Shown piece after piece: positions 1-29,830 of a DNA stretch of 64,000 nucleotides; position 1 is the stretch's first letter; each line of letters starts with the position of its first letter. A program made the position numbers and the translations under genes. The stretch lies in the IMG/VR virus record IMGVR_UViG_3300022752_000051; one strand, 5' to 3'. A model generated the notes under the pieces. The model was not told the DNA's origin, did not search any database, and saw only the letters and a list, made by a program, of their open reading frames with translations. Source of the stretch: an uncultured virus (IMG/VR IMGVR_UViG_3300022752_000051) (lineage: Duplodnaviria > Heunggongvirae > Uroviricota > Caudoviricetes).

Positions 1-3000
1 AGTGGTAGTAGTGGGACATCAGGGTCATCAGGCTCAAGTGGAACAAGTGGTTCATCAGGTACATCAGGAAGTTCAGGAACATCAGGATCATCAGGTACCT
101 CAGGTTCTAGTGGAACGAGTGGTTCTTCAGGAAGTTCAGGAACATCAGGTTCATCAGGTACTTCAGGTTCTAGTGGAACAAGTGGTTCATCGGGAAGTTC
201 AGGAACATCAGGCTCAAGTGGTAGTAGTGGGACATCAGGGTCATCAGGCTCAAGTGGAACAAGTGGTTCATCGGGAAGTTCAGGAACATCAGGTTCAAGT
301 GGTAGTAGTGGTATAAGTGGTTCATCAGGAAGTTCAGGAACATCAGGCTCAAGTGGTAGTAGTGGAACAAGTGGTTCATCGGGAAGTTCAGGAACATCAG
401 GGTCATCAGGCTCAAGTGGAACAAGTGGTTCTTCAGGAAGTTCAGGAACATCAGGTTCAAGTGGTAGTAGTGGAACAAGTGGTTCATCGGGAAGTTCAGG
501 AACATCAGGGTCATCAGGCTCAAGTGGAACAAGTGGTTCTTCAGGAAGTTCAGGAACATCAGGTTCAAGTGGTAGTAGTGGAACAAGTGGTTCATCGGGA
601 AGTTCAGGAACATCAGGGTCATCAGGCTCAAGTGGAACAAGTGGTTCATCGGGAAGTTCAGGAACATCAGGGTCATCAGGCTCAAGTGGAACAAGTGGTT
701 CTTCAGGAAGTTCAGGAACATCAGGTTCAAGTGGTAGTAGTGGTACATCAGGTTCATCAGGATCTAGTGGTACAAGTGGTTCATCGGGAAGTTCAGGAAC
801 ATCAGGTTCATCAGGCTCAAGTGGTACAAGTGGTTCATCAGGAAGTTCAGGAACATCAGGTTCATCAGGTTCTTCAGGCTCAAGTGGAACTTCAGGAGTT
901 GCAGGGGCATCTGGTACATCAGGTTCTTCGGGAAGTTCAGGAACATCAGGGTCTTCAGGTTCTAGTGGAACAAGTGGTTCATCAGGTACTTCGGGTTCTA
1001 GTGGAACAAGTGGGTCATCAGGTACTTCAGGTTCAAGTGGAACAAGTGGTTCTTCAGGAAGTTCAGGTTCAAGTGGAACAAGTGGCTCATCAGGTACTTC
1101 AGGTTCATCAGGTACTTCAGGTTCTAGTGGAACAAGTGGGTCATCAGGTACTTCAGGTTCAAGTGGAACAAGTGGTTCTTCAGGAAGTTCAGGTTCAAGT
1201 GGAACAAGTGGCTCATCAGGTACTTCAGGTTCAAGTGGAACAAGTGGTTCTTCAGGAAGTTCAGGAACATCAGGGTCATCAGGTTCTAGTGGAACAAGTG
1301 GCTCATCAGGAACCTCAGGTTCAAGTGGAACAAGCGGTTCATCGGGAAGTTCAGGAACATCAGGGTCGTCAGGTTCAAGTGGAACAAGTGGCTCTTCAGG
1401 AACCTCAGGTTCTAGTGGAACGAGTGGTTCTTCAGGAAGTTCAGGAACATCAGGCTCATCAGGTACTTCAGGTTCATCAGGTACTTCAGGTTCAAGTGGA
1501 ACAAGTGGTTCATCAGGTACTTCAGGTTCATCAGGTACTTCAGGTTCAAGTGGAACAAGTGGTTCTTCAGGAAGTTCAGGAACATCAGGCTCATCAGGTA
1601 CTTCAGGTTCATCAGGTACTTCAGGTTCAAGTGGAACAAGTGGTTCATCAGGTACTTCAGGTTCTTCAGGAACTTCAGGTTCAAGTGGAACAAGTGGTTC
1701 ATCAGGAAGTTCAGGAACATCAGGCTCAAGTGGTAGTAGTGGGACATCAGGGTCATCAGGCTCAAGTGGAACAAGTGGTTCATCAGGTACATCAGGAAGT
1801 TCAGGAACATCAGGATCATCAGGTACCTCAGGTTCAAGTGGAACAAGTGGTTCTTCAGGAAGTTCTGGTAAGTCAGGTTCTAGTGGAACAAGTGGTTCTT
1901 CAGGAACTTCAGGTTCTTCAGGAACTTCAGGTTCAAGTGGAACAAGTGGTTCTTCAGGAACATCAGGTTCAGCAATTATTAACAATAATGTGGACAATTT
2001 TGTACTTACAGCAACAGGTACTGCTGGAACAATACAAGGAGAACCAGCTTTACAATTCTCAAGTCCAACACTATCTTTCACAGGAACAGGTTCACCTACG
2101 TTAGGTGCTTCCCAAATTTATCTTAATGGTGGAACCTCTAATAGGATTGATTTCAATCAGAATGGAGCTGGAGCCCCCGCATTTACAACAAGAAGTGCGG
2201 GAACAAAAATAGCTTTGTATCCAAATATTAGCGCAAGTACTGTTGATATCGGTTTAGGTTATATGGCCGATGGAGGAGCACCTAGTATGTGGTATTCAAT
2301 ACTAAGTCCAACTTCAAATGGTGCTTTTTATTGGTATGCAGGTACGACTCAAATTATGGCTTTGGTCAATTTAGCGGCGGGAACAAGAAGATTGGATTTA
2401 ACTGCAGGTACTTTAGCAAATCCTGCTATTTCGGCAGGATTGAATTCGTCAGATACTAACACTGGAATTTATTTTCCATTAGCAGACACGATTGGATTTG
2501 TTGAAGGTGGGGCTGAAGCTATGCGAATTGATTCTAATGGTAGAATCAACCTCTTAGCAGGAACAATCGCAAATCCAATATTGAACGCAGGGTTAAACTC
2601 AACTGATACAGACACAGGTCTTTATTTTCCTGCCGCAAACTCATTAGGTTTTGTAACAGGTGGTATTGAAATTATCAGATTAAGTGGTAACACCACTTCA
2701 TTTTCAGGTGGAACAGTATCGTTACCTTCAATCAATGCTGGTTTGAACTCTAACGATACGAATACTGGAATTTACTTCCCATCTAGTGATACGATAGGAT
2801 TTGTAACAAGTGGTACTTCTAGATCTATAATTAACAATACAGGTTTTGGTATCCAAACAACACCATCCGCTTGGATTCATCTCAGCTCCTCACCTATACT
2901 TTCAAATTGGATAAGATTCGATGCAGCTAGAAATGCAAATGTACCACCAGAAAATAATGCAGGTGCTCCTGATACGGGTATAGGCACTCTTGGTGCTATT

Positions 3001-3102
3001 AATAAATACTTACAGGAACCTGATGTCTGGATGGAAGTAATTTTAGATTCCGCAGGAAAAGGAGGAGCGGTAGTCCTAATCCCTTGTTATTTACCCGGAT
3101 AG
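1..3102 (+). CDS. 5'-truncated collagen-like (Gly-X-Ser)n fibre protein with C-terminal tail-fibre-type repeats (>1033 aa)
   Basis: Frame +1 reads SGSSGTSGSSGSSGTS... from base 1 with no stop seen, and runs in frame into the track ORF 1990..3102. The C-terminus has three copies of (A/G)GT.ANP.I.AGLNS.DT(N/D)TG(I/L)YFP..(D/N)(T/S)(I/L)GFV, typical of phage fibre repeats. Confidence 0.85.
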   Translation, partial: SGSSGTSGSSGSSGTSGSSGTSGSSGTSGSSGTSGSSGTSGSSGSSGTSGSSGTSGSSGTSGSSGSSGTSGSSGSSGTSGSSGSSGTSGSSGSSGTSGSSGSSGISGSSGSSGTSGSSGSSGTSGSSGSSGTSGSSGSSGTSGSSGSSGTSGSSGSSGTSGSSGSSGTSGSSGSSGTSGSSGSSGTSGSSGSSGTSGSSGSSGTSGSSGSSGTSGSSGSSGTSGSSGSSGTSGSSGSSGTSGSSGSSGTSGSSGSSGTSGSSGSSGTSGSSGSSGTSGSSGSSGTSGSSGSSGSSGTSGVAGASGTSGSSGSSGTSGSSGSSGTSGSSGTSGSSGTSGSSGTSGSSGTSGSSGSSGSSGTSGSSGTSGSSGTSGSSGTSGSSGTSGSSGTSGSSGSSGSSGTSGSSGTSGSSGTSGSSGSSGTSGSSGSSGTSGSSGTSGSSGTSGSSGSSGTSGSSGSSGTSGSSGTSGSSGTSGSSGSSGTSGSSGTSGSSGTSGSSGTSGSSGTSGSSGTSGSSGTSGSSGSSGTSGSSGTSGSSGTSGSSGTSGSSGTSGSSGTSGSSGTSGSSGSSGTSGSSGSSGTSGSSGSSGTSGSSGTSGSSGTSGSSGTSGSSGTSGSSGSSGKSGSSGTSGSSGTSGSSGTSGSSGTSGSSGTSGSAIINNNVDNFVLTATGTAGTIQGEPALQFSSPTLSFTGTGSPTLGASQIYLNGGTSNRIDFNQNGAGAPAFTTRSAGTKIALYPNISASTVDIGLGYMADGGAPSMWYSILSPTSNGAFYWYAGTTQIMALVNLAAGTRRLDLTAGTLANPAISAGLNSSDTNTGIYFPLADTIGFVEGGAEAMRIDSNGRINLLAGTIANPILNAGLNSTDTDTGLYFPAANSLGFVTGGIEIIRLSGNTTSFSGGTVSLPSINAGLNSNDTNTGIYFPSSDTIGFVTSGTSRSIINNTGFGIQTTPSAWIHLSSSPILSNWIRFDAARNANVPPENNAGAPDTGIGTLGAINKYLQEPDVWMEVILDSAGKGGAVVLIPCYLPG
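4..1971 (+). repeat. 9-bp-period coding tandem repeat, about 218 Gly-X-Y triplets (almost all GSS/GTS)
   Basis: Units such as ggttcatca, ggaacatca and ggaacaagt. Higher-order copies include a 108-bp unit at 355/463/571. Confidence 0.95.
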
Positions 3103-3104
3103 AT

Positions 3105-3662
3105 ATGATAACAGACCCAAAAATAATTGAAAAAATTAAAAATAGTAATGCACGAATTATAAGTGTAAAGGTAGAGGATTTTCAGAAAATGATTCATAAG
3201 GTACATACAATTTCGGGTATGAATGACATTGATATGAATATTACAAGTGAAAGTTACAATAACCAATACAAAATAGAACCACCACCTTTTATAGAGGTTC
3301 CTAAAAAAATAGAAGTCAAATTATCTCATGGTAAGGGTATGGGAGTTTTTGCGGTAGAAAAGATATTGTCAGGAGAAATAATAGAAACTTGTTCACTCAT
3401 TACCCTTCCGAAAGATGGAGATGTCCTCACTGATTATCGTTTTCTTTATCCAAAAAATACTATGAACGAATTTGTAATACCACTTGGTTATGGATGTATT
3501 TATAATCATTCAGATAAACCAAACGCGACTTGGGTAAATCATCCAGAATATAAAGCTTTTAATTTTATTGCAATCAAGGACATAGAAATAAATGAAGAAA
3601 TATGTACATACTATGGAGGAGAATTATATTGGAATTCGAGACAAAACATAAAAGTAATTTGA
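3105..3662 (+). CDS. SET-domain protein-lysine methyltransferase
   Basis: Motifs HGKGMGVFA, GYGCIYNHSDKPNA and DIEINEEICTYYG. ATG at 3105 lies 2 nt after the fibre stop. Confidence 0.9.
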   Translation: MITDPKIIEKIKNSNARIISVKVEDFQKMIHKVHTISGMNDIDMNITSESYNNQYKIEPPPFIEVPKKIEVKLSHGKGMGVFAVEKILSGEIIETCSLITLPKDGDVLTDYRFLYPKNTMNEFVIPLGYGCIYNHSDKPNATWVNHPEYKAFNFIAIKDIEINEEICTYYGGELYWNSRQNIKVI

Positions 3663-3980: not shown

Positions 3981-4232
3981 ATGAAAGTTACACAAGAAGA
4001 GTTTGAAAAAATAAAAGAAATACGTCAACAAGGGGTTAATTTCATTAATGAATTCGGTAAATTGAAAATGGACGAATTAATAATTAAGAAAAGATCCGAA
4101 GATCTCATAAAAAAATATGATATATTTTCTGAAGAAGAAAAAAAGTTCTTCGATTTACTTGCTTACAAATATGGTAAAGTGAATATTGATATCGAAACAG
4201 GTGAAATTACTGAATACTTAGTTCAATCCTAA
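3981..4232 (+). CDS. small coiled-coil protein (possible fibre-associated chaperone)
   Basis: 83 aa, helical and charged, ending YGKVNIDIETGEI. Function inferred only from position. Confidence 0.6.
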   Translation: MKVTQEEFEKIKEIRQQGVNFINEFGKLKMDELIIKKRSEDLIKKYDIFSEEEKKFFDLLAYKYGKVNIDIETGEITEYLVQS

Positions 4233-6494
4233 TTTTTGAAAAACTTGTTTTGGGGTAATAGATCTTTGACACACGTGTTGTTTCTTAGTTCCTTTGTATA
4301 CAGGGCACCAATCCCAATCTGAGGGATCAAATGTAAAAACTTCATCATTCCAACAAAACACACAAGTATTATCGTTGTATATCCTAGTTGTGTTTGATGT
4401 GAATTCGTGACCTGGTCTAGCAAACCCATTTATCATATAGGTGTGTTTACCTAAAGCCCAATTGATCCAAGACAATCCTGATCCGAGACCTATAAATTTG
4501 TCGGCATGAAGCAGAAGTGTCATTACTTCTTGAAGTGATTTATTATTAAAATTGAATGTTTCAGGTATTTTGTATTCCTTTTGTGAAACAACAAAAATAT
4601 CGTAACCTTTTGATTTAATCATTTGTGCTAACTCACACCAATTCTCAAAGGACCATTCTTTACATCCTGCGGTCGCTTGTGGACCAAAAACTACATATTT
4701 TTTTTTGTGATATTTCTCATAGTTTTTTATATTGAGACCATAGTTTAGCTCAAAAAAGTTTAACCCAAGTATATCCGTAGCTGTTTGTTGAAGAGGAATT
4801 AAATTAACTTGATTTGGGTTTCTATCTTTATCCTCCCATAATCCATTCTTTTTAAACCAACCAATTCTATAAGCCGCATAACAATTATGAGTTTCACCTG
4901 GTTTTATAAATTGAATATTATTATAATAGTTCAATCCTTCGAATAAAAAGTTTTGAAAGGTAGATAACAAAACCTTACAATTATTTTTTTTCTGAAACTC
5001 TACAGCATAAGGAACCCAACCTATGGTATCACCTAGAGAACTTGATTCTAACGAAATTAAAATTGTTTTTCCCACGGGATCAAATCTATCAACAATTTCT
5101 CCATTTACTCTTATTCCCCACTCTACATAATATTTGATGGAACAAGCGCACCACATACCGTTCGAAATGGTTGTTGAATATTTAATTTCATTTGTTTTCA
5201 AATCTATAAACTCAACAAAATATTCCTCAGGACTTTGTCCGACAATCTCAACTCTTGGCCCATCCAAATATGTAACTAATATGTCATTTTTAATTGGGTT
5301 TTGTTTGAAATCTTTCATAAATTTATCTATAATATTCTTTGCTTTTCGACTAATATTTGACCAACTGAATTCATTTCTTATAATTTCGGATTCTTGTAGA
5401 GCTTTATTTTTATAAAATTCCCAATTATTGTATACATTCAACATTTTCAAACTCAAATCTGATTTGTCGGGTTCATAATAATTACCAACCGAACTATTGA
5501 AGTGATTATACGTGTTAGCGGATACGGGGCTTTCACCTAATATTTTTACGGGAATACCTTTACCTGATGCAAATTCCATCTGACCTGAACATTCAGAATA
5601 TATGGATGGAATACCACAAGCCATTGCCTCGATTAGTGGTAAATTCCATCCTTCACTTCGAGCACAGGATAGGAAGACATCACAAGATTTGAGTATTTTA
5701 ATGTAATCCTCTCGAGAAGGGAAATGTAAAATTTTTATTCTATCATCATTTATTCCAAAATGTTCTAATCTCTCTTCTGTGGTTGACATTCCATCATTAC
5801 TAAAAGGATTGTCAATAGAAACTATCAAATCAACCTTATCATTTTCGGAAAATGTTGTTAAAAATGTCTCGATAATTTCTTTTGTGAATTTTCTATAATC
5901 CCATCGACCAGCTAAGAAAAACTTAAAACGACCATCTTGAGTTAAATCACAATTTACAATTTCGGGAAAGAAAACCAACGGATCAATACCTTCAGGAACT
6001 ACTTTAACTTTGTCAGGGTCATATCCTTGATTGATTGAACATTGTCTTTGCCATTCAGACGGTACCCAAAGTTGATCAAATTCTTTTAACCTATCAAAAA
6101 AATGTTGTGGTTGGAGAGTCGATTCCCAAACATTATATGCGATTTTTGGCCCTATGTAATGATCGTAAAAAATATGATGATCCGTCTCACACAATACAAT
6201 ATTTAAATTGTGAAAAAAGTTTTTGTTTTCATTTGGATAAATTGGATAGTCTGATCTAGACCCATCGTTATTCCAAAGAATTTGTGAAAATAATAGTTTT
6301 CTGTCGGTGTCATTTAGATATGGCTCTCCGTCATGAGGGGTTTCATTGAAACCGTTCCAACTTGAACCTATGGTAAAATTTCTTACTTTTAATGAATAAT
6401 AATTTGATAATTCGCGAAAAAAATCTCGTGAATGTTGATTATAACCCGTATTTCCTATGTAGGAACAATGGGCAAATATTTTTGTGTCAGCCAT
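4218..6494 (-). CDS. two-domain glycosyltransferase: GT4-like + AAH/TibC (BAHT) autotransporter O-heptosyltransferase-like
   Basis: N-half has the GT4 motif RSEGWNLPLIEAMACGIP. C-half has SSSLGDTIGWVPY, FIGLGSGLSWINWALGK and the Cys cluster CVFCWND..FDPSDWDWCP...QHVCQRSIT. Confidence 0.85.
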   Translation of the reverse strand: MADTKIFAHCSYIGNTGYNQHSRDFFRELSNYYSLKVRNFTIGSSWNGFNETPHDGEPYLNDTDRKLLFSQILWNNDGSRSDYPIYPNENKNFFHNLNIVLCETDHHIFYDHYIGPKIAYNVWESTLQPQHFFDRLKEFDQLWVPSEWQRQCSINQGYDPDKVKVVPEGIDPLVFFPEIVNCDLTQDGRFKFFLAGRWDYRKFTKEIIETFLTTFSENDKVDLIVSIDNPFSNDGMSTTEERLEHFGINDDRIKILHFPSREDYIKILKSCDVFLSCARSEGWNLPLIEAMACGIPSIYSECSGQMEFASGKGIPVKILGESPVSANTYNHFNSSVGNYYEPDKSDLSLKMLNVYNNWEFYKNKALQESEIIRNEFSWSNISRKAKNIIDKFMKDFKQNPIKNDILVTYLDGPRVEIVGQSPEEYFVEFIDLKTNEIKYSTTISNGMWCACSIKYYVEWGIRVNGEIVDRFDPVGKTILISLESSSLGDTIGWVPYAVEFQKKNNCKVLLSTFQNFLFEGLNYYNNIQFIKPGETHNCYAAYRIGWFKKNGLWEDKDRNPNQVNLIPLQQTATDILGLNFFELNYGLNIKNYEKYHKKKYVVFGPQATAGCKEWSFENWCELAQMIKSKGYDIFVVSQKEYKIPETFNFNNKSLQEVMTLLLHADKFIGLGSGLSWINWALGKHTYMINGFARPGHEFTSNTTRIYNDNTCVFCWNDEVFTFDPSDWDWCPVYKGTKKQHVCQRSITPKQVFQKLGLN

Positions 6495-6542: not shown

Positions 6543-7496
6543 ATGATTGTTTTTACAAGATATTCAGAGGATTATTATACCATTTATTATAAAAATGTTT
6601 CTGACAAACCAATAGAGATAAAAATTTTAGGATTTGAACCTTATCAAAAAAATCCGCATTTTGAAAATAATTTAATATGTGAGCCGCATGTTGAATATTT
6701 TACACACATGGGTCATACAAATTTACAGGGTAGAAAAGTTTTAATTTATGATCGTAACACAAATGAATTATTAGCTCCGTTTGTTTTAGATGGACCAAAT
6801 TCATTGATGGATTATGAATATAAAAATTATATTCACGATATATTATCTGTAAGTGATTCGGCGGATCAAGGTGGAATTTTATTTTGTTTTTCTGAACATC
6901 ACCTACACCCTGAATATGAAAATTTTATAGATATCGAAAAAGGTGACATCGTTGTGGATGTTGGATTTAATTTTGGATTATATTCACTCAGAGCATTGCG
7001 AAGAGGTGCTAAAGAAATATGGGGATTTGAACCTAATCGAAGGATTTATCAAAAGTTAAAAGATCATTATCCTGATCAAGATAGAGTTCATTTGTATAAT
7101 TTTGCAGTATCAGATAAAAATGGGTTTGCAAGGTTTAAAGAAATTTCAGGGACATTGGGGGCTGGTATTTGTGATACACAAGATGATAATAGTGTTTTAG
7201 ATTATTATGATGTACGAATAATAAATTTATATGATTTTTTGATTTATCATAATATTCATCACATAGATCTATTGAAAATTGATTGTGAAGGCACCGAATA
7301 TGAAATTATTGAAAGTATTCCTGATGAATATTTTTCTAACATAAGGAAAATTCATATGGAATATCACATTAATACTGAAAGAAGATTACAAAATATTTTA
7401 GATAAGTTAAATCGAGTTGGATTTGAAATTACATTTGGGAATAATTCTTCAATAGATACTTGGATCGGCATGATTTATTGTAAAAAAAATGGCTAA
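6543..7496 (+). CDS. FkbM-family SAM-dependent methyltransferase
   Basis: Motifs VVDVGFNFGLYS, GFEPN and IDLLKIDCEGTEYEII. Confidence 0.9.
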   Translation: MIVFTRYSEDYYTIYYKNVSDKPIEIKILGFEPYQKNPHFENNLICEPHVEYFTHMGHTNLQGRKVLIYDRNTNELLAPFVLDGPNSLMDYEYKNYIHDILSVSDSADQGGILFCFSEHHLHPEYENFIDIEKGDIVVDVGFNFGLYSLRALRRGAKEIWGFEPNRRIYQKLKDHYPDQDRVHLYNFAVSDKNGFARFKEISGTLGAGICDTQDDNSVLDYYDVRIINLYDFLIYHNIHHIDLLKIDCEGTEYEIIESIPDEYFSNIRKIHMEYHINTERRLQNILDKLNRVGFEITFGNNSSIDTWIGMIYCKKNG

Positions 7497-20084: not shown

Positions 20085-21074
20085 GTGAACAATTGGAAAA
20101 ACAATTTAATATTTGTTTCTGCACAACCAGATATCCCATATTTTCATTGGCAATGTGAGGTGTATCTTAATAATTTCTTAGATCTAGGAATTCCAAAAGA
20201 TAATATTCACATATTATTTGGAACTCAAGATAATGAAAAGTTATCTCCTGATGCAAAAAAACTAAAACAATACACAAAAAATATTTTTAGTTTCAAAGAT
20301 GAGAGAGATAAAAAACATTATATCCCAAGTATTAAACCATTTTTAATTTACAAGTGGTTGAAACAAAAAAAACAGAGAGGTAAATTACTTTTTGTTCATG
20401 ATTCTGATATCATATTTAACTCACTACCTAACTTTGATAAACTTATTCAGGATGATATTAACTATGTCTCAGATTGTCGAGGTTATTTAAATCACAACTA
20501 TTTAAGATCTTGTGATAATAGATATTATGAAAAACATTCAGATAAAATTTACAGTGGTCAATTAATTCGTGAAATGTGTGATATAATTGGTGTTGAACCA
20601 AGAACCATCAGAGACCAAAACGACAACACGGGTGGTGCACAATATTTATTGAAAGATCAAGATTGGCAACTTTGGTTTAAGATATACAAAAATTCAAATT
20701 TATTGTTTGATAGAATAAAAAGATTTGATAATGAGTATCCGATTGAAAACGGACAATTACAAGTTTGGACAGCTGAAATGTGGTCAATACTTTGGAATCA
20801 ATGGTTTATGGATAAACAAGTTAGAATAACTGATGAATTAAGTTTCTGTTGGGCAAGTGACAAGATCACAGATTGTGATGATAAAAAAATATTTCATCTA
20901 GCTGGTGTAACAGAAGAAATTAGGTTAAATACTTTTTACAAAGGAGATTTCATCAATGTAAACCCATTGAATGTATTGAAAAACAATCCAAATTTTTTCA
21001 ATTTTATCGATAAAACATCCGCAACTAATTTATACGTTGAGTTGATGAAATTAGTTTCAAAAAAACTAATTTGA
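20085..21074 (+). CDS. glycosyltransferase resembling plant peptidyl-Ser galactosyl- / Hyp arabinosyltransferases (GT96/GT95-like)
   Basis: Ordered motifs YFHWQCEV, YIPSIKPFLIYKWL, VHDSDIIF, GGAQYL, WTAEMWS and IFH. GTG start. Confidence 0.65.
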   Translation: MNNWKNNLIFVSAQPDIPYFHWQCEVYLNNFLDLGIPKDNIHILFGTQDNEKLSPDAKKLKQYTKNIFSFKDERDKKHYIPSIKPFLIYKWLKQKKQRGKLLFVHDSDIIFNSLPNFDKLIQDDINYVSDCRGYLNHNYLRSCDNRYYEKHSDKIYSGQLIREMCDIIGVEPRTIRDQNDNTGGAQYLLKDQDWQLWFKIYKNSNLLFDRIKRFDNEYPIENGQLQVWTAEMWSILWNQWFMDKQVRITDELSFCWASDKITDCDDKKIFHLAGVTEEIRLNTFYKGDFINVNPLNVLKNNPNFFNFIDKTSATNLYVELMKLVSKKLI

Positions 21075-23477: not shown

Positions 23478-26400
23478 ATGGCAATTTTAAATAAAGTATT
23501 TACCAACTGTCTTAATTCATCCGATACACAAATATTTCAGTATAACGATTTATTGTTTGTACCGGGTAGTGTGATTTCTCAAAATGGTAATTGCTATCGT
23601 GACACACAAATTACATCTGATTTGGTCGCAACATTGAGCATTAAGTCTACTGGTTTTACCAATTGTCAAGAATGTTTAACAACAACAATGACTGGATTAG
23701 TTGTTTCTGGATGTTCAGGTGGTACATTTATGTATCTGACATTACCAAATGATGAAGTTCCACCGATCGGATATACAGTCCTTTATAACTCTTTTTGTTG
23801 GACTGTAGTTTCAGCAACTACAGAATTTTATAACGTTCAATCAAACATTCCTTCTTTTGAGGATTGTGAAACATGTAATCTTTTTGGTACCACAGTTGAA
23901 AGGACAGGTGGTGGTTCAACTACAGGACCGGGAGATCCCGGAGATCCAGGTGGAGGAGGCGGTGGAGGTGGTTACCAACCTAATTATGAGGTAACAAAAT
24001 TTGTTCAGTGTTGTGATAGTTCAGTATCAAGGTGGTATGAAATTGATATTAATTCTCAGGGTTGGGGACCTACAGGTACACAAGTATATTATGATTTTAC
24101 AAATCAAATTGCTTGGGTACGTACAAATGTTATTTGCAATCCTCCATACCAAAATTGTATTTCTTTTGGTCAATTACCAGGATTTCTAAGTAATAGTTGT
24201 GGTGATGTGGCACAATGTCCGACACCTACTGTAACACAAACACCAACAGCAACATCACAACAATATTCGTATTGGGGCGCATCTTCGGTACTTAATGGTA
24301 CTCCACCTACTTTTCAAGATACTTGTAATAATTGGGTTCCCCCCGGTCAATATTACTATGGATTTAAACCATTTAATTTACTTCAAGTAAATGATTATTT
24401 ATACTCTGCAGCCTCAAGAAATTCTACCAGTTTAGTTGTAGGTAGTGATTATGCTGTATTACCTTTAGCATCAAGTAATACAACAAATGTCGAAAAATAT
24501 TTTCAAGTGAGTTCGACAGGAAGAATAGCCGCGATTGTCAATTGCACACCTATAACTTTTTATCCATATAAAATTTCAGAAATACAAGTACTTTCTGGAT
24601 ATTTTACAAATACACAAGAAGCTTGCAATTACCCATTTAGTGTTTATTGGCGTATTATTTACGGATTGAAACCAATTGATCTACTTGTGACTGGTGATGT
24701 TCTGTATGCCACAAGTGATTTTAGTACACCACTTACAGCTTTTTACTGGTTAGGTAATACGTATAGACCTATGTATGAGTGGAGTACAACAACAAACACA
24801 ATTGTTGGGCCTAAATATGTTGTTAGGAGTGCTGCAGGTGGAAATGGGGCAATTAGTTTTATAGCTACATGTGATAGTGTTGCACCACCATTTACACCAA
24901 CTCCAACAATAACATCCACAGGATGTGTTGCACCGGGAACTGTAGTAGATTGTGTTTCTTATAAACTTTTTGCGAACGGAAACACAGCTGTTGTTTTCAA
25001 TTACGATCGGTGCACAAACAATGGAATTGATTATGGACTTCAAATTACTGTCCAACCTTTTAGTGATACAATAGTTTGTAGTTCTAGTCTTCCAACATTT
25101 GTATCTGGAGGACCATATGGTATACAAACACTACTGGGATGTAATAGAATATGTATTGACCCAACACCTACACCAACTTTAACACCAACAAATACCCAAA
25201 CTCCAACTAAAACATCTACAGAGACACCTACACCAACAAATACCGTATCACCCACACAATCACCATCCATTACACCATCTAATTCCCAGACTGGAACACC
25301 ACCACCATCAGGAACAAACTTCCCAACTCCAACACCGTCAGTCACAAACACTCAAACACCTACGAACACACCGACAAACACTCAAACACCTACGAACACA
25401 CCGACAAATATGTCGACACAAACACCAACTTTGACACAAACATCAAGCCAAACAGGAACACCAGTACTAACACCGACTAATACACCTAGTGTCACTCGTA
25501 GAGCAACAACAACTACTACAAGACCATCAGGTATAGAAGAGTGTCGCGTAATAACTGTAGAACCAATGGGTGTGACTTGTAATGTCATCAATGCTACAAC
25601 ACCAGGAGCATTGAGTACGGCCGCATTAATTATTACAGGTGGAACTTCACCATATAATATTTTGTGGGATCACGGAATAAATCCACCACAATATCAGATA
25701 TTAAATAACTTAACAAATGGTATTTATTCGGCAACGGTTACAGATTTTTTCCAAGATTATAGAGTTAAAGTTTTTTGTGTTGTTACAGGAGCTTCAATAA
25801 CTGTAACATCTACACCAACAGTGACACCAACTCAAACTGGAACACCACCACCATCAGGAACAGCTGGGCCAACACCACCTGTTACAAGTACACCAACTTT
25901 CACACCATCACCCACAGTAACATCAGTATCACAATTGTGTGCTACGTTTAATATAACAGATGGTAATGGTATTCAAAGATTTGAACAATACCAATTCTTT
26001 TACGGAAACCAAATTAACGGCACCAATTCATGGACTGCCACTACTACACAAAACTATTTAACAAATAGTGGATCTTTATTATTGAGATTTCAACCAACAG
26101 TCTCTAATCTAGGAAATTGGTACATATCACAAATTTCCGCATCAAACAATATAGTTTGGCCATTTACTATACTGACTGGGAATGCAAACAGAAATTCATT
26201 ACCTACAAATGGATGGGGGTTTCTTGGGCCTACAACCTATACTGATAGTTTCGGCAGAAGTAATACGGTTAATAGTTTGCAAGTCACAATCGGACAATGT
26301 ACCGTACCACCACTATCAATAACATTAATCACCCAGAACGCTACTTGTCCATTATCCTTCGACGGTAGTATCAGTATTGTAACAGCTGGTGGAACGCCAC

Positions 26401-27656
26401 CATATTTTTATTCCTTAGATAATACAAATTTTCAAACAAGTAATACATTCATTAATCTTTCAAATGGATTTTATACAGCATATATTAAAGATAGTGCTAC
26501 ACCACCACAAACGTCTTCTCAATCATTTACTATAAATACAACTTATAATCAAGCACGACCAACAACATTAAATTTTACTCGAACACAATATATTCCCAAT
26601 AATAGTCAACCAACAATTTTTGATAATTTTTCACAATATGAATTAAATTTAAATCAACTAGCGAATGGAGTGAGTTTATCTACATTAAATTTTGATTTAG
26701 AAATTCAAAATATTACAAGTAGTCCTGGTACAACAGACGCTATTGGTACGGCAGTTACTGTATTGGTCAATAATCAAACTGTGTTCACAACAGGTGTTAC
26801 ATCATCTACACTATGGACTGAAACATCAACAACGCCAAGAACTAGTGTAGGTTGTAGTAATCAAAATGCAACAATTACAACTCAAAAAATATTAGTTCCA
26901 GACAGAACTCTCGGTTCCCTTGGTATTCGAGTAGCCGCATTTTTTGGTAGAGCTATTGAAAATACTGATGTTGTGATCATCAATATCACAAATAAAGCAA
27001 GAATTATTTCACCATCAACCATACAAACTTGTCCAACAGAGTTAACAAATAAAATAATGATCAATACAAATTATGTTGTGACTGGACCAAATCAAAATTG
27101 TTTTCCAGTACAAGGTAATCCATCAATTACTGTAACTGATTCTAAATCAGCAACACAAGCCGTAAGTACCACTTACACGGGTGAATGGAGAATACAAGTC
27201 ACAAACGCAGCAACATGTTTTGCGGTTGTTAGTGTAAAGACGCAAGGTATAATTGGATCAGGCACTTTGAATGCTAATTGTAATAGACAGTCAACTAGTA
27301 TACCAAATCCATGGCCTGGCGGTCAAATTAATGTTTTCAGAGGACAAACTTTGAGAGTAATGCCTCCAGCTTATAGTACTTGTGTTCCAATACCTGTAGC
27401 GGCTTCAGATTATATTCAGATTCAGTACATTATGTATACATCTACTAATTGTACCAATAGTGTATCTCCTGGTAATTCTACACCGTGTAGTGGAGATTAT
27501 GAATTGATGCTTTATGTTGACCAACAACAATATGGACCAATGTTATTACCCACTATTGGTGGAGCAAGTACAGTAGCTCTTATTTTTAATGGTCAAAGAC
27601 CTGTAATTAACCCCAATAGTAATGTGACTATAATAATTGATTGCGTTTCACCTTAA
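23478..27656 (+). CDS. 1392-aa Cys/Thr-Pro-rich protein with SprB-like repeats
   Basis: NATCPLSFDGSISIVTAGGTPPYFYSLD...FINLSNGFYTAYIKDS and GGTSPYNILW...NLTNGIYSATVTD, plus long TP tracts and a poly-Gly stretch. Confidence 0.8.
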   Translation: MAILNKVFTNCLNSSDTQIFQYNDLLFVPGSVISQNGNCYRDTQITSDLVATLSIKSTGFTNCQECLTTTMTGLVVSGCSGGTFMYLTLPNDEVPPIGYTVLYNSFCWTVVSATTEFYNVQSNIPSFEDCETCNLFGTTVERTGGGSTTGPGDPGDPGGGGGGGGYQPNYEVTKFVQCCDSSVSRWYEIDINSQGWGPTGTQVYYDFTNQIAWVRTNVICNPPYQNCISFGQLPGFLSNSCGDVAQCPTPTVTQTPTATSQQYSYWGASSVLNGTPPTFQDTCNNWVPPGQYYYGFKPFNLLQVNDYLYSAASRNSTSLVVGSDYAVLPLASSNTTNVEKYFQVSSTGRIAAIVNCTPITFYPYKISEIQVLSGYFTNTQEACNYPFSVYWRIIYGLKPIDLLVTGDVLYATSDFSTPLTAFYWLGNTYRPMYEWSTTTNTIVGPKYVVRSAAGGNGAISFIATCDSVAPPFTPTPTITSTGCVAPGTVVDCVSYKLFANGNTAVVFNYDRCTNNGIDYGLQITVQPFSDTIVCSSSLPTFVSGGPYGIQTLLGCNRICIDPTPTPTLTPTNTQTPTKTSTETPTPTNTVSPTQSPSITPSNSQTGTPPPSGTNFPTPTPSVTNTQTPTNTPTNTQTPTNTPTNMSTQTPTLTQTSSQTGTPVLTPTNTPSVTRRATTTTTRPSGIEECRVITVEPMGVTCNVINATTPGALSTAALIITGGTSPYNILWDHGINPPQYQILNNLTNGIYSATVTDFFQDYRVKVFCVVTGASITVTSTPTVTPTQTGTPPPSGTAGPTPPVTSTPTFTPSPTVTSVSQLCATFNITDGNGIQRFEQYQFFYGNQINGTNSWTATTTQNYLTNSGSLLLRFQPTVSNLGNWYISQISASNNIVWPFTILTGNANRNSLPTNGWGFLGPTTYTDSFGRSNTVNSLQVTIGQCTVPPLSITLITQNATCPLSFDGSISIVTAGGTPPYFYSLDNTNFQTSNTFINLSNGFYTAYIKDSATPPQTSSQSFTINTTYNQARPTTLNFTRTQYIPNNSQPTIFDNFSQYELNLNQLANGVSLSTLNFDLEIQNITSSPGTTDAIGTAVTVLVNNQTVFTTGVTSSTLWTETSTTPRTSVGCSNQNATITTQKILVPDRTLGSLGIRVAAFFGRAIENTDVVIINITNKARIISPSTIQTCPTELTNKIMINTNYVVTGPNQNCFPVQGNPSITVTDSKSATQAVSTTYTGEWRIQVTNAATCFAVVSVKTQGIIGSGTLNANCNRQSTSIPNPWPGGQINVFRGQTLRVMPPAYSTCVPIPVAASDYIQIQYIMYTSTNCTNSVSPGNSTPCSGDYELMLYVDQQQYGPMLLPTIGGASTVALIFNGQRPVINPNSNVTIIIDCVSP

Positions 27657-27667
27657 ATAAATAAAAA

Positions 27668-29830
27668 ATGGGATATATCATAAAAAATACATCTGGGTTG
27701 ATAAATACCCAAATAACAGATACAGGTAGAAAATACCTATCGCAAGGAAATTTTAACATAGCATACTTTCAGGTCGGCGATTCTGAAGTTTGTTATACTG
27801 GAGGCTCAGTGATACCGAATGGGTATATTTTTGAAGCTGATTATAATGCGCAGAATTCAACACCATATCCACAATCAAATCGAGAATATATCAAATATCC
27901 ATATTATTTAGAAGGAACCTCTGGAAATACTTACGGTATACCAGCCGATTTATCAGCCGAAACGTTGATTTTCAATTATACGGATATGCTTGGATTCTTT
28001 ATGACTGGAGCGTCGAATAACTATATCGTAAACACAACAACAGGTCTTACATTAACAGCCAATTATATTTTTGATTTGAATGTATGTAACGGTGCTAATA
28101 TTATTCTTTTGCAAGATTTTATTTGTACGCCAAGTGTCAATAACCCATCTACAGGAGATTTTATTACAATGTATTTTGATTTCACTCCTGATTGTGGAAA
28201 CATAGATAATTTTATGATATTAACCTATAAAATAACTTCTTTTCAAGATTTGGGTGAGGGGTTATATCGAGTGAGTTTGGATAGAAGTTTACCGAATTTT
28301 GCTAGTGTTTCGGATTGTTTGGGTCAAGCTAGAGCTTATATTTACCCATCAGAATTTGATACATATTATGATGTAACGGTACCTTCAAATTATTTTGCAC
28401 TTCCTTGTACTACCACATCCCAAGTCAATATTTGGAATATGAATATACCGTGGAGTGAAAGTCCAGCTGGTTTGCTTGAAACAAGTTATAAAGGTTATAC
28501 GTATTTCGGATCTGTAAATTATATTGGTAGTAAAGAATATCTAGGGTATCAAACGGATAGTGGTCAATACTTTATAGATAGTTCTGGAATTACGGCAACG
28601 ACAGACTCTTTCTATTTTAATTCTTACGGAGAAAAAGTTGATGTAAAACCTTCAGAACAAAAAACTATTGCGATTGTAAGTTATACAAACCAAAGTATTA
28701 ACAATTACTATGGAGAAAAGTTCGCTGTAGAACCGTATGATCAATCAAATCCCGGACAAGAGGGACAGGCTAGAAACCTTAAAGTTATATTACCAACATT
28801 AATGTGGCATAAATCTACGGGAAATACCATTGGTGAAACATTTTATATTGATCCTCCAGGATTTAATTTACTTTCACCATCATATATGAAAAGTACCAAG
28901 AACTCAGATTTCAATACACCGGGTATGAGGTATTATCATTTATGGGATACAAATTCAAATCCAAATGGATTACCTAACAGAGTTGGAAAAGTTTACCCAG
29001 ATTCAAAAATTGTGGTGTTTGATGATGAAGAAATCGTGGCAGCAATGTCATATAAATCAAATAGAAATTGGACTTTACCAGCACCACAATTAAATTTATT
29101 GGCACCTAATTTGTGTACAGGTGATATTGATTCTGTTGGTATTTTAAATAATAGTGGTCAAACACTTTATTTAACATATAGATTTACATCTACAGCATTT
29201 ACACAATCTCTTCATTGTAATTACTATTCCAAAATAGTTGGTCCAACTGATACGTCTCAACCTATGAATGTTGCATTTAGGTTTGGAAATGAATTTCCAT
29301 TTTTATCTGACGGTTGTTATGGATTTCATGCGAATGGAATGAAAATATTAGCTCAAATTGTACCAACAAATACAAAACCACTACCAAATTTTTGGACTGA
29401 AATTGATGTAACCTCGGATCTCAGTGGGTCATTAGTAAATGGGTATATTGTTCAATCAAACATAGTAAACACAACTTTTGTATTAAGTTTGAATGATTTT
29501 ACAGGTGGAACACCTTATAACTTAGCGAACGTTATTAATCTACCAACTTTGGGATCTGTAGGTGGACTTAATTTTGGAGATGAATATTATTTCTATGGAA
29601 ATTTTGTTTCTGATATTGAAGCTACAATTTATGAAATGAAATATGGTATAAATTTGACTAGTCAACAATTTACAAATTCGTCTAATCCAACATCAAGTGG
29701 AACCTCAACTAATTATATTACAGAAATTGGTCTTTATAATTCCAAAAAAGAACTTATGATTTTATCAAAATTGAGTGCACCTCAAACCAGACGTGCACTA
29801 CAACAATTCTTAGTAAAATATGACTTTTAA
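27668..29830 (+). CDS. putative tail/baseplate structural protein
   Basis: N-terminal ITDTGRKYLSQGNFNIAYFQVGDSEV and C-terminal YITEIGLYNSKKELMILSKLSAP resemble tail-collar/baseplate attachment motifs. Confidence 0.6.
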   Translation: MGYIIKNTSGLINTQITDTGRKYLSQGNFNIAYFQVGDSEVCYTGGSVIPNGYIFEADYNAQNSTPYPQSNREYIKYPYYLEGTSGNTYGIPADLSAETLIFNYTDMLGFFMTGASNNYIVNTTTGLTLTANYIFDLNVCNGANIILLQDFICTPSVNNPSTGDFITMYFDFTPDCGNIDNFMILTYKITSFQDLGEGLYRVSLDRSLPNFASVSDCLGQARAYIYPSEFDTYYDVTVPSNYFALPCTTTSQVNIWNMNIPWSESPAGLLETSYKGYTYFGSVNYIGSKEYLGYQTDSGQYFIDSSGITATTDSFYFNSYGEKVDVKPSEQKTIAIVSYTNQSINNYYGEKFAVEPYDQSNPGQEGQARNLKVILPTLMWHKSTGNTIGETFYIDPPGFNLLSPSYMKSTKNSDFNTPGMRYYHLWDTNSNPNGLPNRVGKVYPDSKIVVFDDEEIVAAMSYKSNRNWTLPAPQLNLLAPNLCTGDIDSVGILNNSGQTLYLTYRFTSTAFTQSLHCNYYSKIVGPTDTSQPMNVAFRFGNEFPFLSDGCYGFHANGMKILAQIVPTNTKPLPNFWTEIDVTSDLSGSLVNGYIVQSNIVNTTFVLSLNDFTGGTPYNLANVINLPTLGSVGGLNFGDEYYFYGNFVSDIEATIYEMKYGINLTSQQFTNSSNPTSSGTSTNYITEIGLYNSKKELMILSKLSAPQTRRALQQFLVKYDF

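Follow-up and report, generated by a model that had tools for sequence, protein, structure and literature searches.

A putative glycosylation module for a Gly-Ser/Thr collagen-like tail fiber in an uncultured jumbo phage

To our knowledge, the only known activity of the BAHT family, which includes TibC and AAH, is the direct O-glycosylation of protein serines. The substrates described for the family are beta-helical autotransporter repeats (PMC4358343), whereas the candidate acceptor in the phage studied here is a collagen-like helix. Bacterial and viral triple helices otherwise depend on proline or salt bridges, and (Gly-Pro-Thr)10 is described as a random coil unless its threonines are galactosylated (PMC11923368). 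Literature searches found no paper on the pairing of a BAHT enzyme with a Gly-Ser/Thr collagen-like fiber.

We analyzed a window of 64,000 nt from an uncultured Caudoviricetes phage (IMG/VR IMGVR_UViG_3300022752_000051), a jumbo phage of roughly 300 kb, and compared it with 84 fetched loci, with 80 related core loci, and with 50 related jumbo-phage records for co-occurrence. All gene positions given in an earlier note on this DNA were confirmed (Table 1). The observations of that note largely hold, and its interpretation is supported in part. We propose that the phage probably sugar-coats its own Gly-Ser-Ser/Gly-Thr-Ser tail fiber. Positions 1-13947 would form a putative fiber glycosylation module, a designation supported by our data, and we consider it rather likely that the fiber is the acceptor.

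Table 1. Features of the analyzed window, with strand and main evidence
Position	Strand	Feature	Evidence or remark
1..3102	+	Tail-fiber gene, proposed acceptor	5' end cut by window edge
3084..3662	+	SET-domain protein	PF00856 44 bits
3981..4232	+	83-aa ORF	Adjoins 3' end of BAHT gene
4218..6494	-	GT4-BAHT fusion, 758 aa	PF00534, TIGR04414, and TibC match
6543..7496	+	FkbM-family methyltransferase	TIGR01444 84.1 bits (cut-off 37.7); PF05050 58.7 bits
7489..8133	+	Short DegT/PseC-like protein, 214 aa	PF01041 37.1 bits
8133..9518	+	GT8 fused to NeuD/PglD-type sugar N-acetyltransferase	PF01501 29.0 (cut-off 24.3); TIGR03570 164.4 (cut-off 160.8)
9508..10290	+	260-aa ORF, GT possible	No family match
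10291..11247	+	318-aa ORF, weak GT-B leads	Atlas clusters
11240..13129	+	629-aa protein: DUF6625, GT8/GT6-like GT-A, C-terminal beta-sandwich	
13126..13947	+	Weak FkbM-like methyltransferase	TIGR01444 26.7 bits, below cut-off 37.7, E=6.3e-6
14121..20050	+	Three structural-type proteins, 427, 912, and 553 aa	LamG/ConA-like and DUF5122 beta-propeller domains
20085..21074	+	GT8-like retaining GT-A glycosyltransferase, 329 aa	phrog_4417 3.6e-69
21089..23251	+	720-aa protein, Cys-bearing modules joined by Thr/Pro/Ser linkers	26% S+T
23478..27656	+	1392-aa protein with Thr/Pro linkers	25% S+T
55235..63259	-	2674-aa protein, small C-x-C...Y-T-D-C modules and long Thr/Pro/Ser linkers	32% S+T, 12% Pro

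The collagen-like fiber and the GT4-BAHT fusion protein

The fiber comprises 219 uninterrupted Gly-X-Y triplets (130 GSS, 84 GTS, and 5 other), in which 433 of the 438 X and Y positions are Ser or Thr. The repeat matches the collagen profile PF01391 with 311.9 bits (cut-off 27.2), and its 658 aa include a single charged residue but not one proline. It is followed by a 375-aa non-collagen C-terminal part with tail-fiber repeats (phrog_18345, tail fiber, 8.8e-13). Relatives carry up to 2418 aa of such Gly-X-Y repeats, with 0% proline and at most 3% charged residues. Since the repeat lacks proline and is almost uncharged, a sugar coat would probably be more than a shield or binder; if present, and by analogy with glycosylated collagens, it probably also stabilizes or stiffens the triple helix.

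The gene of the 758-aa GT4-BAHT protein lies 1.1 kb from the fiber gene. Its N-terminal half is a GT4 domain (PF00534, 44.8 bits, cut-off 26.4; phrog_2170, 5.6e-35), and its C-terminal half (aa 403-754) exceeds the curated cut-off of the BAHT model TIGR04414 (227.4 vs. 200 bits). This half matches TibC (4rap) with E=4.8e-41 over TibC residues 24-379 of 406, i.e., across beta-barrel, catalytic domain, and iron finger. When the functional residues of TibC defined in PMC4358343 were mapped, the catalytic base (D489), the phosphate/sugar binders (T608, K612, and W676), and the four Fe-coordinating cysteines (C711, C714, C730, and C742) were all found to be kept, and none of them varies among the 27 distinct phage BAHT copies. 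Judged by its sequence, the domain is a true TibC/AAH-family homologue, in line with the resemblance that the earlier note had seen in one of the glycosyltransferases. One position differs: TibC needs the adenine-reading Arg-286 for activity, whereas the phage protein has a valine there (V657). An arginine occurs at this position in none of the 27 phage copies and in only 30 of the 148 nearest clusters. Because this residue is replaced, the sugar donor need not be ADP-heptose, and the chemistry of the domain may differ from that of the named family.

GT4 stands directly N-terminal of BAHT in 11 of 14 proteins scanned, preceded by variable modules (methyltransferase, GT25, DXD-GT, or pyruvyl-transferase). 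The 83-aa ORF, for which Pfam and PHROGs returned no family, has homologues directly downstream of BAHT in two further loci, L003 and L004 (35% and 30% identity, blastp).

We propose aa 403-754 as an initiating protein Ser/Thr O-glycosyltransferase and aa ~100-390 as an extending GT4. In the order of action that we infer, the BAHT domain would place the first sugar directly on Ser/Thr hydroxyls of the fiber in the host cytoplasm, modelled on TibC and AAH acting on adhesin serines. The fused GT4 and the neighboring soluble GT8/GT-A enzymes would extend the glycan, and FkbM methyltransferases together with the NeuD/PglD acetyltransferase would modify either the sugars themselves or the nucleotide precursors. 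The resulting glycans would stabilize or stiffen the triple helix, like the glycosylated threonines of proline-poor collagens.

Further enzymes of the glycosyltransferase island

The island covers 4218-13947 and 20085-21074. About seven GT-like domains had been counted there, which is a fair number: profiles and GT-A folds support five of them well (GT4, the TibC/BAHT-type domain, GT8, and two GT8-like GT-A folds), one is likely (DUF6625), and two ORFs are without assignment. In the 629-aa protein, DUF6625 occupies aa 17-230 (PF20330, 93.3 bits). The predicted structure (pLDDT 90.8) clearly points to a GT-A fold for aa ~257-540, which superimposes on LgtC (Z=17.1, rmsd 3.8 Å, 240 aligned residues), and the best Foldseek match of the protein is the bifunctional GT WbbM (1.1e-9). 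An alignment of 28 sequences showed no variation at D113/D115 and D356/D358. With its invariant D113-I114-D115 (a DxD motif), DUF6625 is likely a GT-A domain, but the LgtC comparison barely sampled its fold. The 329-aa enzyme (model pLDDT 95.4) resembles glycogenin (Z=15.6, rmsd 3.4 Å, 227 aligned residues) as well as UGGT and LgtC (both Z=14.2), and its D106 and D108 are invariant. The suggested resemblance of a second glycosyltransferase to GT95/GT96 was not confirmed for this enzyme: neither PF23452 nor any other Pfam family matched at E≤10, and the one weak lead comes from an atlas cluster at rank 12, 10% of whose members carry PF23452. The 260-aa ORF had no match in Pfam, PHROGs, NCBIfam, or PDB sequences, and its hhalign probability against A1 and A2 was below 1%. 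For the 318-aa ORF, Pfam and NCBIfam gave no family match, and the nearest named atlas clusters score only 0.83, which is lead level (T4-Gluco-transf 40%, Glyco_trans_1_2 34%).

Among the tailoring enzymes, the acetyltransferase was recovered as described. Of the two proposed FkbM-like methyltransferases, the one at 6543-7496 is firm and the one at 13126-13947, with homologues in 10 of 84 loci, stays below the cut-off. The aminotransferase is represented by a DegT match that covers only profile positions 26-98 of 360. The protein is thus a truncated form of the sugar aminotransferase fold, and its activity is uncertain. It is kept at the same length with 78-94% identity in three other loci (L001, L041, and L052). 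The sugar-precursor set is incomplete because the DegT-like protein is truncated and the window contains no sugar-nucleotide dehydratase. Furthermore, neither GmhA nor a heptose-1-phosphate adenylyltransferase for heptose activation was found in five complete relatives. The claim of a complete pathway building a virion glycocalyx is thus not supported. Membrane-like segments are absent from all nine enzyme ORFs, consistent with a cytoplasmic route directed at proteins.

Co-occurrence of BAHT and Gly-Ser/Thr repeats

Among the 50 related records, 30 carry both BAHT and the repeat, 15 neither, 2 only BAHT, and 3 only the repeat (Fisher p=4e-8, relatedness ignored), and the reversed-pattern control gave no match in any of them. 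All five discordant records are incomplete contigs. The seven genomes that are at least 90% complete are concordant (4 both, 3 neither), representing only six lineages (p=0.1). With relatedness considered, eight independent pairs remain, of which 5-6 point in the same direction, none in the opposite, and 2-3 in neither (p 0.03-0.06). The signal is then modest. It is also confounded, since the two genes are usually neighbors and fragmentary contigs lose both. Of 32 BAHT neighborhoods, 23 include a repeat ORF at a distance of no more than about 4 kb; the spacing is 11-50 kb or unspecified in seven records that carry both. The other island glycosyltransferases do not track the repeat (DUF6625 in 7 and phrog_4417 in 6 of 50 records); among the island genes, only BAHT does.

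We also inspected independent lineages, i.e., phages without the 720-aa core protein. In the cultured Microcystis phage Mel-JY01, a 1226-aa GT4...BAHT protein is encoded about 1.7 kb from a 1016-aa open frame, of which 606 aa are GSS/GTS-rich Gly-X-Y. In the 735-kb megaphage LR756501, a collagen-like ORF lies about 3.6 kb from a 743-aa GT4-BAHT protein. A further megaphage, LR756504, also encodes BAHT, but no repeat lies within 20 kb of it.

Other candidate acceptors and alternative functions

Composition confirmed four Ser/Thr-rich proteins in the window, with 25-49% S+T (the fiber being highest at 49%) vs. mostly 7-17% in other ORFs. In the 720-aa protein, up to 25 of 30 residues are S/T/P. 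This protein has homologues in 68 of the 80 core loci, and the 1392-aa protein (phrog_26672, virion structural protein, 4.4e-6) has them in 66. Two of the three complete genomes without BAHT and the 329-aa GT retain such Thr-Pro proteins. The 2674-aa protein matches phrog_15511 (7.4e-19) and has no homologue in the 84 loci. The view of these proteins as dedicated acceptors is therefore not supported, and the proposed co-occurrence of glycosyltransferases and acceptors stands for BAHT and the Gly-Ser/Thr repeat, not for the Thr-Pro proteins. With respect to BAHT and the 329-aa GT, relatives thus keep the latter while lacking the enzymes, an outcome that the earlier note had named as refuting its proposal. 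Each of the three complete genomes nonetheless has 2-4 GT2 domains.

The enzymes might nevertheless glycosylate virion proteins other than the collagen-like repeat, with the Thr/Pro-linker proteins (21089, 23478, and 55235), the LamG/propeller proteins, and the C-terminal repeat domain of the fiber as candidates. The linker proteins (25-32% S+T) belong to the same structural block, the one at 21089 is abutted by the gene of the 329-aa GT, and the nearest folds of this GT include glycogenin, UGGT, Skp1 galactosyltransferase, and GlyE, which act on proteins or protein-linked glycans. The natural TibC substrates described in PMC4358343 are beta-rich repeats, closer to the C-terminal fiber repeats than to a triple helix. 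However, given the wide distribution of the Thr/Pro proteins irrespective of BAHT and phrog_4417, the rarity of phrog_4417, and the tracking of the Gly-Ser/Thr repeat by BAHT instead, we regard this as unlikely. Slightly less probable still is an auxiliary or host-takeover module remodelling host envelope glycans or surface proteins (LPS core, capsule, S-layer, or adhesins), e.g., blocking superinfection. Polysaccharide clusters typically contain GT4, GT8, FkbM, and PglD families, PHROGs lists the GT4 family under 'moron, auxiliary metabolic gene and host takeover', and a huge-phage survey assigned a phage heptosyltransferase I gene to LPS (PMC10747093). Yet the cluster is embedded among the structural genes and occurs together with the fiber of the phage itself, and membrane proteins, flippases, polymerases, and lipid-carrier transferases are all missing from it. 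Its BAHT family stands for direct protein O-glycosylation rather than LPS synthesis, and LPS heptosyltransferase models reach only 32 and 16 bits on the enzyme (cut-offs 185 and 437).

Fiber gene and island could also merely share a hypervariable, exchanged region and be gained or lost by linkage, with no enzyme-substrate relation. The island is indeed very plastic: locus L001, whose BAHT protein is 96% identical, carries two extra methyltransferases, DUF6625 and phrog_4417 come and go, and on the tree of the core protein BAHT and repeat each switch about 10 times. We consider this improbable, as the co-occurrence persists at distances of tens of kilobases, recurs in the differently organized genomes of Mel-JY01, LR756501, and L003 (here beside a tail sheath gene), and is restricted to BAHT among the island genes. 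Modification of phage DNA bases is very improbable. Phage glycosyltransferases hypermodifying DNA are known (bioRxiv 10.1101/2023.12.21.572611), and the 318-aa ORF has the T4-Gluco-transf lead; but the atlas tool itself rates this lead as no better than chance, the window contains no base-hydroxymethylase or TET-like gene, and BAHT, GT8, FkbM, and PglD are not DNA-modifying families. Glycosylation of the collagen-like fiber is thus the reading that we prefer.

The three structural genes at 14121..20050 (PF17164, 211 bits; PF13385, 71 bits; phrog_8510, virion structural protein, 7e-27 and 1.4e-13) stand between the main part of the island and its last glycosyltransferase. The SET-domain protein next to the fiber is conserved in L001 (97%) and L007/L008 (46%).

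Genomic setting and content of the enzyme island

The window has about 30% G+C, and its genes are densely packed, mostly on one strand. Matches to phage families comprise a primase, a RuvC-like resolvase, a PD-(D/E)XK exonuclease, an SbcCD-like nuclease, and a sigma factor, and furthermore an amidase, DnaJ, a thioredoxin, a glutaredoxin, and a glutamine-synthetase-like protein (see table). Among 50,697 deposited phage records, none was similar, either by DNA (4000-24000) or by the core protein, a conserved 720-aa product used for comparisons between genomes. In IMG/VR contigs, this protein has 323 relatives, several on contigs of 295-322 kb rated 98-100% complete, and the window is therefore a member of a large uncultured jumbo-phage family. 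Scans of 3000-15000 returned 73 promoter-like sites (77 expected) and four terminator-like sites (3.8 expected). Two adjoining structural proteins share near-identical N-terminal regions of about 150 residues and LamG/ConA-like matches, with six DUF5122 beta-propeller repeats in one of them; they look like paralogous, perhaps carbohydrate-binding, fibre or baseplate proteins.

Features of the window and their assignments
Feature	Position	Strand	Details
Collagen-like fibre	1-3102	+	Open frame running past the window's 5' edge
SET-domain protein	3084-3662		Lysine methyltransferase type
83-aa ORF	3981-4232		No known family
GT4-BAHT fusion	4218-6494	-	758 aa; GT4 ~100-390, BAHT 403-754
FkbM methyltransferase	6543-7496		TIGR01444 84.1 bits (cut-off 37.7)
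DegT-like protein	7489-8133		214 aa; PF01041 profile positions 26-98 of 360 only
GT8 + NeuD/PglD-type acetyltransferase fusion	8133-9518		PF01501 29.0 bits (cut-off 24.3); TIGR03570 164.4 bits (cut-off 160.8)
Candidate ORF	9508-10290		No family in Pfam, PHROGs, NCBIfam or PDB sequences
Candidate ORF	10291-11247		No family match
DUF6625 + GT-A protein	11240-13129		629 aa; DUF6625 93 bits
Weak FkbM-like protein	13126-13947		TIGR01444 26.7 bits (under cut-off 37.7)
Structural protein	15404-18142		LamG/ConA-like
Structural protein	18389-20050		LamG/ConA-like
GT8-like GT-A protein	20085-21074		phrog_4417 3.6e-69; model pLDDT 95.4
Thr/Pro protein	21089-23251		720 aa
Thr/Pro protein	23478-27656		1392 aa
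Core protein	27668-29830		720 aa
Sigma-70-type factor	38251-39051		
DnaJ	46583-47539		Complete: J domain, zinc finger, C-terminal domains
Glutamine-synthetase-like protein	52627-53886		
Ser/Thr-rich protein	55235-63259	-	2674 aa

All enzymes were located where the earlier note had placed them, and its count of about seven glycosyltransferase (GT)-like domains is fair: HMM searches and fold models gave five well-supported domains and one likely domain, with two further ORFs as candidates only. The GT4 half of the 758-aa protein matched PF00534 (44.8 bits, cut-off 26.4, aa 188-308) and phrog_2170 (5.6e-35). The DUF6625 protein was folded with a 28-sequence alignment (pLDDT 90.8), and residues ~257-540 of the predicted model adopt a GT-A fold of the retaining type (LgtC, Z = 17.1, rmsd 3.8 Å over 240 aligned residues); the best full-length Foldseek match was the bifunctional transferase WbbM, and Mimivirus R699 was among the fold neighbours. 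Its DUF6625 half, barely sampled in the fold matches, is likely also a GT-A domain, as D113-I114-D115 is invariant in the alignment. The model of the phrog_4417 protein matched glycogenin (Z = 15.6) as well as UGGT and LgtC (14.2); PDB 5gvv (GlyE) was also among its fold matches. Searches of PDB sequences with the ORFs starting at 9508, 10291, 11240, 13126, and 20085 gave no match below E = 0.4, the phrog_4417 family profile gave no meaningful match there, and a permissive Pfam scan (E ≤ 10) of five proteins without a family returned the DegT match alone. For the candidate ORF at 9508, hhalign against profiles A1 and A2 stayed below 1% probability, and for the one at 10291 an atlas search yielded chance-level leads only.

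Regarding the sugar-tailoring enzymes of the earlier note, the FkbM methyltransferase at 6543 and the NeuD/PglD-type acetyltransferase (aa 268-455 of the fusion, with PglD_N and hexapeptide repeats) stand, but the second FkbM falls below its cut-off and the proposed aminotransferase is too short for the full-length fold of about 360 profile positions. On the latter protein, models for PseC and LegC scored 22 and 20 bits, respectively, against cut-offs of over 420. Membrane-like segments were found in none of the nine enzyme ORFs of the window. Two additional sugar methyltransferases are encoded on a contig with a BAHT protein that shares 96% identity with the window's.

A BAHT-family domain beside a collagen-like fibre

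The C-terminal half of the 758-aa fusion belongs to the bacterial autotransporter heptosyltransferase (BAHT) family. It scored 227.4 bits against TIGR04414 (curated equivalog cut-off 200; profile positions 10-370 of 374) and matched the solved TibC with E = 4.8e-41 over residues 24-379 of 406. The resemblance to TibC/AAH is a true family relationship. Two GTs had been likened to families that modify protein side chains directly, and the TibC/AAH half of this claim is borne out by the scores and by the residues described below, while the half on GT95/GT96, the families of HPAT and peptidyl-Ser galactosyltransferase, was not substantiated. The 20085-21074 product has no Pfam match even at E ≤ 10, and no solved GT95/GT96 structure was among the fold matches of its model; PF23452 (HPAT), present on 10% of members of one atlas cluster at rank 12, is a weak lead.

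According to PMC4358343, TibC uses Asp-110 as catalytic base, binds its ligand through Thr-226, Lys-230, and Trp-305, and coordinates iron in a finger of Cys-339, 342, 358, and 370. Pairwise alignment with TibC maps these residues to D489, T608, K612, W676, and C711, C714, C730, and C742 of the window, and all are invariant in 27/27 distinct phage copies. The same study describes Arg-286 as reading adenine N1 and underlying the choice of an ADP-activated donor, with the R286A mutation abolishing or largely diminishing activity, and assigns heptose stereoselectivity to residue Pro-300 of TibC and residue Ser-294 of AAH. The window has V657 at the former position and G671 at the latter; across the 27 phage copies, the Arg-286 position is V, T, L, or A, never Arg. 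An exhaustive search for BAHT relatives yielded 1362 representative clusters at E ≤ 0.001. Among the best 148 of these, Arg occupies the Arg-286 position in 30, the Asp and Trp are found in 148 each, the Lys in 147, and the Thr in 138, and 119 represent proteins with 600 aa or more. Because Arg-286 is replaced, we treat the phage enzyme as a BAHT-family homologue and not as an ADP-heptose heptosyltransferase; its donor may differ from ADP-heptose. In agreement with this, GmhA and heptose-1-phosphate adenylyltransferase (rfaE domain II) were absent from all five complete relatives searched.

Of 14 scanned proteins with a BAHT domain, 11 have GT4 immediately N-terminal to it. Modules further N-terminal vary among the 14 and include FkbM and other methyltransferases, GT25, a DXD sugar-binding GT, and polysaccharide pyruvyl transferase. 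Together with the lack of membrane-like segments in the enzyme ORFs of the window, these architectures suggest a constant pair of initiating and first-extending enzymes to which a tailoring layer of variable make-up is added, all of them soluble, which would fit stepwise cytoplasmic protein glycosylation better than a lipid-linked polysaccharide route. In five related records (G001, G002, G004, G005, and G045), the GT4-BAHT gene is followed directly downstream by a further BAHT paralogue of only 292-298 aa (e.g., locus L135, 11015-11911). This short version matches profile positions ~80-373 and so has no N-terminal beta-barrel, but retains all four Cys along with the Asp, Thr, Lys, and Trp.

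An autotransporter, the usual neighbour of a BAHT gene, is absent from the window; a collagen-like fibre adjoins instead. Fibre residues 1-658 comprise 219 Gly-X-Y triplets in register (219/219 Gly), of which 130 are GSS, 84 GTS, and five other, with no proline and one charged residue, and the fibre scored 311.9 bits against PF01391 Collagen (cut-off 27.2). Its C-terminal 375 aa matched tail-fibre PHROGs only; the related fibre of locus L003 has at its end an intramolecular chaperone domain, Peptidase_S74 (62.8 bits; 'chaperone of endosialidase'). Related fibres have up to 2418 repeat residues with 0% proline and ≤ 3% charged residues. PMC11923368 describes non-animal triple helices as depending on proline or Lys-Glu/Asp salt bridges, and (Gly-Pro-Thr)10 as randomly coiled unless galactose is attached to its threonines. 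The usual stabilisers (Pro/Hyp or Lys-Glu/Asp salt bridges) are missing from the fibre repeat, a putative triple helix; a dedicated glycosyltransferase next door would therefore be mechanistically attractive.

Within 1-2104, several reading frames of the repeat DNA are open, on both strands (ORFs 3-2081 (-), 317-2104 (+), and 170-757 (-)). Only the Gly-X-Y frame continues into the tail-fibre-homologous domain, and gene callers may choose the wrong one. The SET-domain gene overlaps the 3' end of this virion fibre gene and is kept in L001 (97%) and L007/L008 (46%). The 83-aa ORF adjoining the BAHT gene has counterparts of 30-35% identity at L003 7031-7282 and L004 2279-2530, likewise next to BAHT, and could encode a small partner protein.

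Co-occurrence of the enzymes with their proposed acceptors

The sample comprised 50 records of the family: every one of the 39 with 88 kb or more, the five next largest, and six that are near the window or known BAHT carriers. Each was searched for BAHT by means of TIGR04414 and for the fibre repeat by means of a degenerate pattern of six Gly-Ser/Thr-Ser triplets. BAHT exceeded its cut-off in 32 records and the repeat was found in 33, with 30 records having both, two BAHT only, three the repeat only, and 15 neither (Fisher p = 4e-8, uncorrected for kinship). A reversed-pattern control matched none of the 50. Specificity controls gave DUF6625 in 7/50 and phrog_4417 in 6/50 records, and among the island GTs, BAHT alone tracks the repeat.

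As the two genes are usually neighbours, fragments lose both together, which confounds the co-occurrence. Of 32 BAHT neighbourhoods, 23 have an ORF with the repeat no more than about 4 kb away; in seven further records with both features, the repeat is 11-50 kb off or at unknown distance. The five discordant records are all incomplete: one is a 6-kb fragment ending at BAHT, and in another (G024) the repeats begin at base 15 of the contig. Genomes of at least 90% completeness were concordant in 7/7 cases (four with both, three with neither), although these represent six lineages only (p = 0.1). Eight independent pairs on the core-protein tree gave 5-6 concordant, no opposite, and 2-3 uninformative pairs (p 0.03-0.06, confounded by incomplete contigs).

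BAHT was furthermore found in four deposited phage records, none of which has a detectable relative of the core protein. In the cultured Microcystis phage Mel-JY01 (190 kb), it forms the end of a 1226-aa protein that also carries GT4 and is annotated 'methyltransferase FkbM'. About 1.7 kb upstream of this gene lies an open frame of 1016 aa, 606 of them in Gly-X-Y rich in GSS/GTS, and a similar but shorter frame is located just downstream. Megaphage LR756501 (735 kb) encodes a 743-aa GT4-BAHT protein with a collagen-like ORF about 3.6 kb off, and LR756503 has an identical BAHT match. LR756504 has a stand-alone BAHT with no Gly-Ser/Thr repeat within 20 kb. In the Mel-JY01 record (PP395634.1, locus L144), the 1016-aa frame is not annotated as one gene; over 1-3052, hypothetical CDSs are annotated on the minus strand (1-651 and 739-2298) and a short CDS on the plus strand (2519-3052). 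The open frame starts with the record's first bases, and the record may itself begin inside the collagen-like gene. A second stretch noted in this record spans 9444-9983.

The other proposed acceptors behave differently from the fibre. The Ser/Thr-rich proteins described in the earlier note are real; in the 720-, 1392-, and 2674-aa products, Thr/Pro/Ser linkers string together small modules that bear Cys. Their claimed role as dedicated acceptors found no support. The two Thr/Pro-linker proteins are near-universal (68/80 and 66/80 loci) and persist in two of the three complete genomes that lack BAHT as well as phrog_4417, which contradicts this role with respect to those enzymes. GT2 domains were present in all ten near-complete genomes searched (2-6 in each), so the linkers may be glycosylated by other enzymes. 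These domains form, elsewhere in the genome, a further cluster that also has weak GT1 matches and is present in all near-complete members of the family, those without BAHT included (G009, G012, G029, and G039; e.g., G012, 78-93 kb). For the 2674-aa protein, neither a homologue in the fetched loci nor a tie to the enzyme cluster was found. It is the sole examined product with a 19-residue hydrophobic stretch above a membrane-like threshold (residue ~966, mean Kyte-Doolittle 1.76).

As the sugar-precursor set in the window is incomplete and the proposed Thr/Pro acceptors are untied, a complete pathway building a virion glycocalyx goes beyond the evidence. What the data support, with somewhat better than even confidence on our part, is a fibre-glycosylation module.

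Relation to known glycosylation systems

According to PMC4358343, BAHT enzymes partner bacterial autotransporters. Characterised members of the family add heptose to serines of such a partner and assemble into a dodecameric ring. The phage BAHT is of the same family, over cut-off, as TibC-TibA and AAH-AIDA-I of E. coli (PDB 4RAP/4RB4), with a common domain order (beta-barrel, GT-B catalytic core, iron finger) and common catalytic Asp, Thr/Lys/Trp, and four Cys; like these enzymes, it is predicted to be soluble and cytoplasmic, lies beside a repetitive Ser-rich surface protein, and would be expected to hyperglycosylate many serines. In contrast to them, it is phage-encoded and fused to GT4 (in relatives also to methyltransferase, GT25, or pyruvyl-transferase modules), its neighbour is a collagen-like Gly-X-Y fibre instead of an autotransporter beta-helix, Arg-286 is replaced by Val/Thr/Leu/Ala, and its relatives are without heptose-activation genes. 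To our knowledge, BAHT enzymes have been known solely as partners of bacterial virulence adhesins.

BclA-type collagen-like glycoproteins and glycosylated-threonine collagens are named in PMC11923368. The fibre shares with the BclA type a collagen-like repeat with hydroxyl residues; however, its X and Y positions are nearly all Ser/Thr without proline, the candidate transferase is BAHT and not a spore-system enzyme, and its glycosylation is predicted. In the BclA-type exosporium of Bacillus and in glycosylated-threonine collagens, Gly-X-Thr-type repeats without hydroxyproline carry O-glycans on hydroxyl residues, and glycosylation can stand in for hydroxyproline in triple-helix stabilisation.

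Actinobacteriophage GTs near structural genes have been proposed or shown to O-glycosylate virion proteins, the acceptors being capsid and tail-tube termini. GT families, acceptors, and hosts differ from those considered here, and neither BAHT nor a collagen-like acceptor is known there. Virion glycosylation is described for actinophages in PMC11256854, and giant-virus glycosylation for Mimivirus fibrils and the chlorovirus capsid in PMC9614988 and PMC7019647. Giant viruses likewise use virus-encoded GTs together with a sugar aminotransferase, acetyltransferase, and methyltransferase to decorate surface fibres without host machinery; they are viruses of eukaryotes, however, and the sugar-nucleotide pathway of the window is incomplete. 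We know of no BAHT in giant viruses, and of glycosylated phage-particle proteins in few phages only, mostly actinophages. In Gram-positive Ser-rich-repeat adhesin systems (GtfA/B, GlyE), cytoplasmic O-glycosylation is stepwise, with an initiating GT followed by several GT8-type extenders encoded nearby. Their initiator differs from that of the phage (GtfA TIGR02918 15.7 bits versus 574.6), and their acceptors are disordered, not Gly-X-Y, in bacterial, export-coupled systems. The huge-phage survey in PMC10747093 assigns the heptosyltransferase of a phage to the LPS genes.

Our literature search, largely outside subscription journals, found no paper pairing a phage BAHT with a collagen-like fibre and none naming Mel-JY01. 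Enzyme family and acceptor type are each known; the combination and the host are new to print.

A more speculative reading, to which we give rather little credence, joins these observations: proline- and charge-free fibres would become triple-helical only through hyperglycosylation by the BAHT megaenzyme, and would represent a novel biological material, a 'sugar-stabilised collagen'. With 219 to about 800 triplets each, the (Gly-Ser/Thr-Ser)n chains, roughly 0.2-0.7 micrometre long if triple-helical (at an assumed rise per residue), would be sugared at essentially every X and Y position by a megaenzyme of BAHT, GT4, and tailoring modules, yielding a bottlebrush, mucin-like collagen. The donor would be other than ADP-heptose because the adenine-reading Arg is lost, and the variable outer layer of GTs and methyltransferases would vary the glycan, which would then serve as a code for host range or against recognition.

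If the reading as a fibre-glycosylation module holds, a whole abundant environmental jumbo-phage family would make glycoprotein fibres with its own machinery, and unrelated cyanophages and megaphages would do likewise. This would bear on phage host recognition, on protease resistance or adhesion of phage fibres, and on building a collagen helix without proline, and soluble modular enzymes glycosylating a simple repeat would be usable for glyco-engineering. As Mel-JY01, a carrier, is in culture, the hypothesis is directly testable. A prolyl 4-hydroxylase is annotated in this phage (locus L147, PP395634.1 146571-147170), and its collagen-like frame contains about 2% proline.
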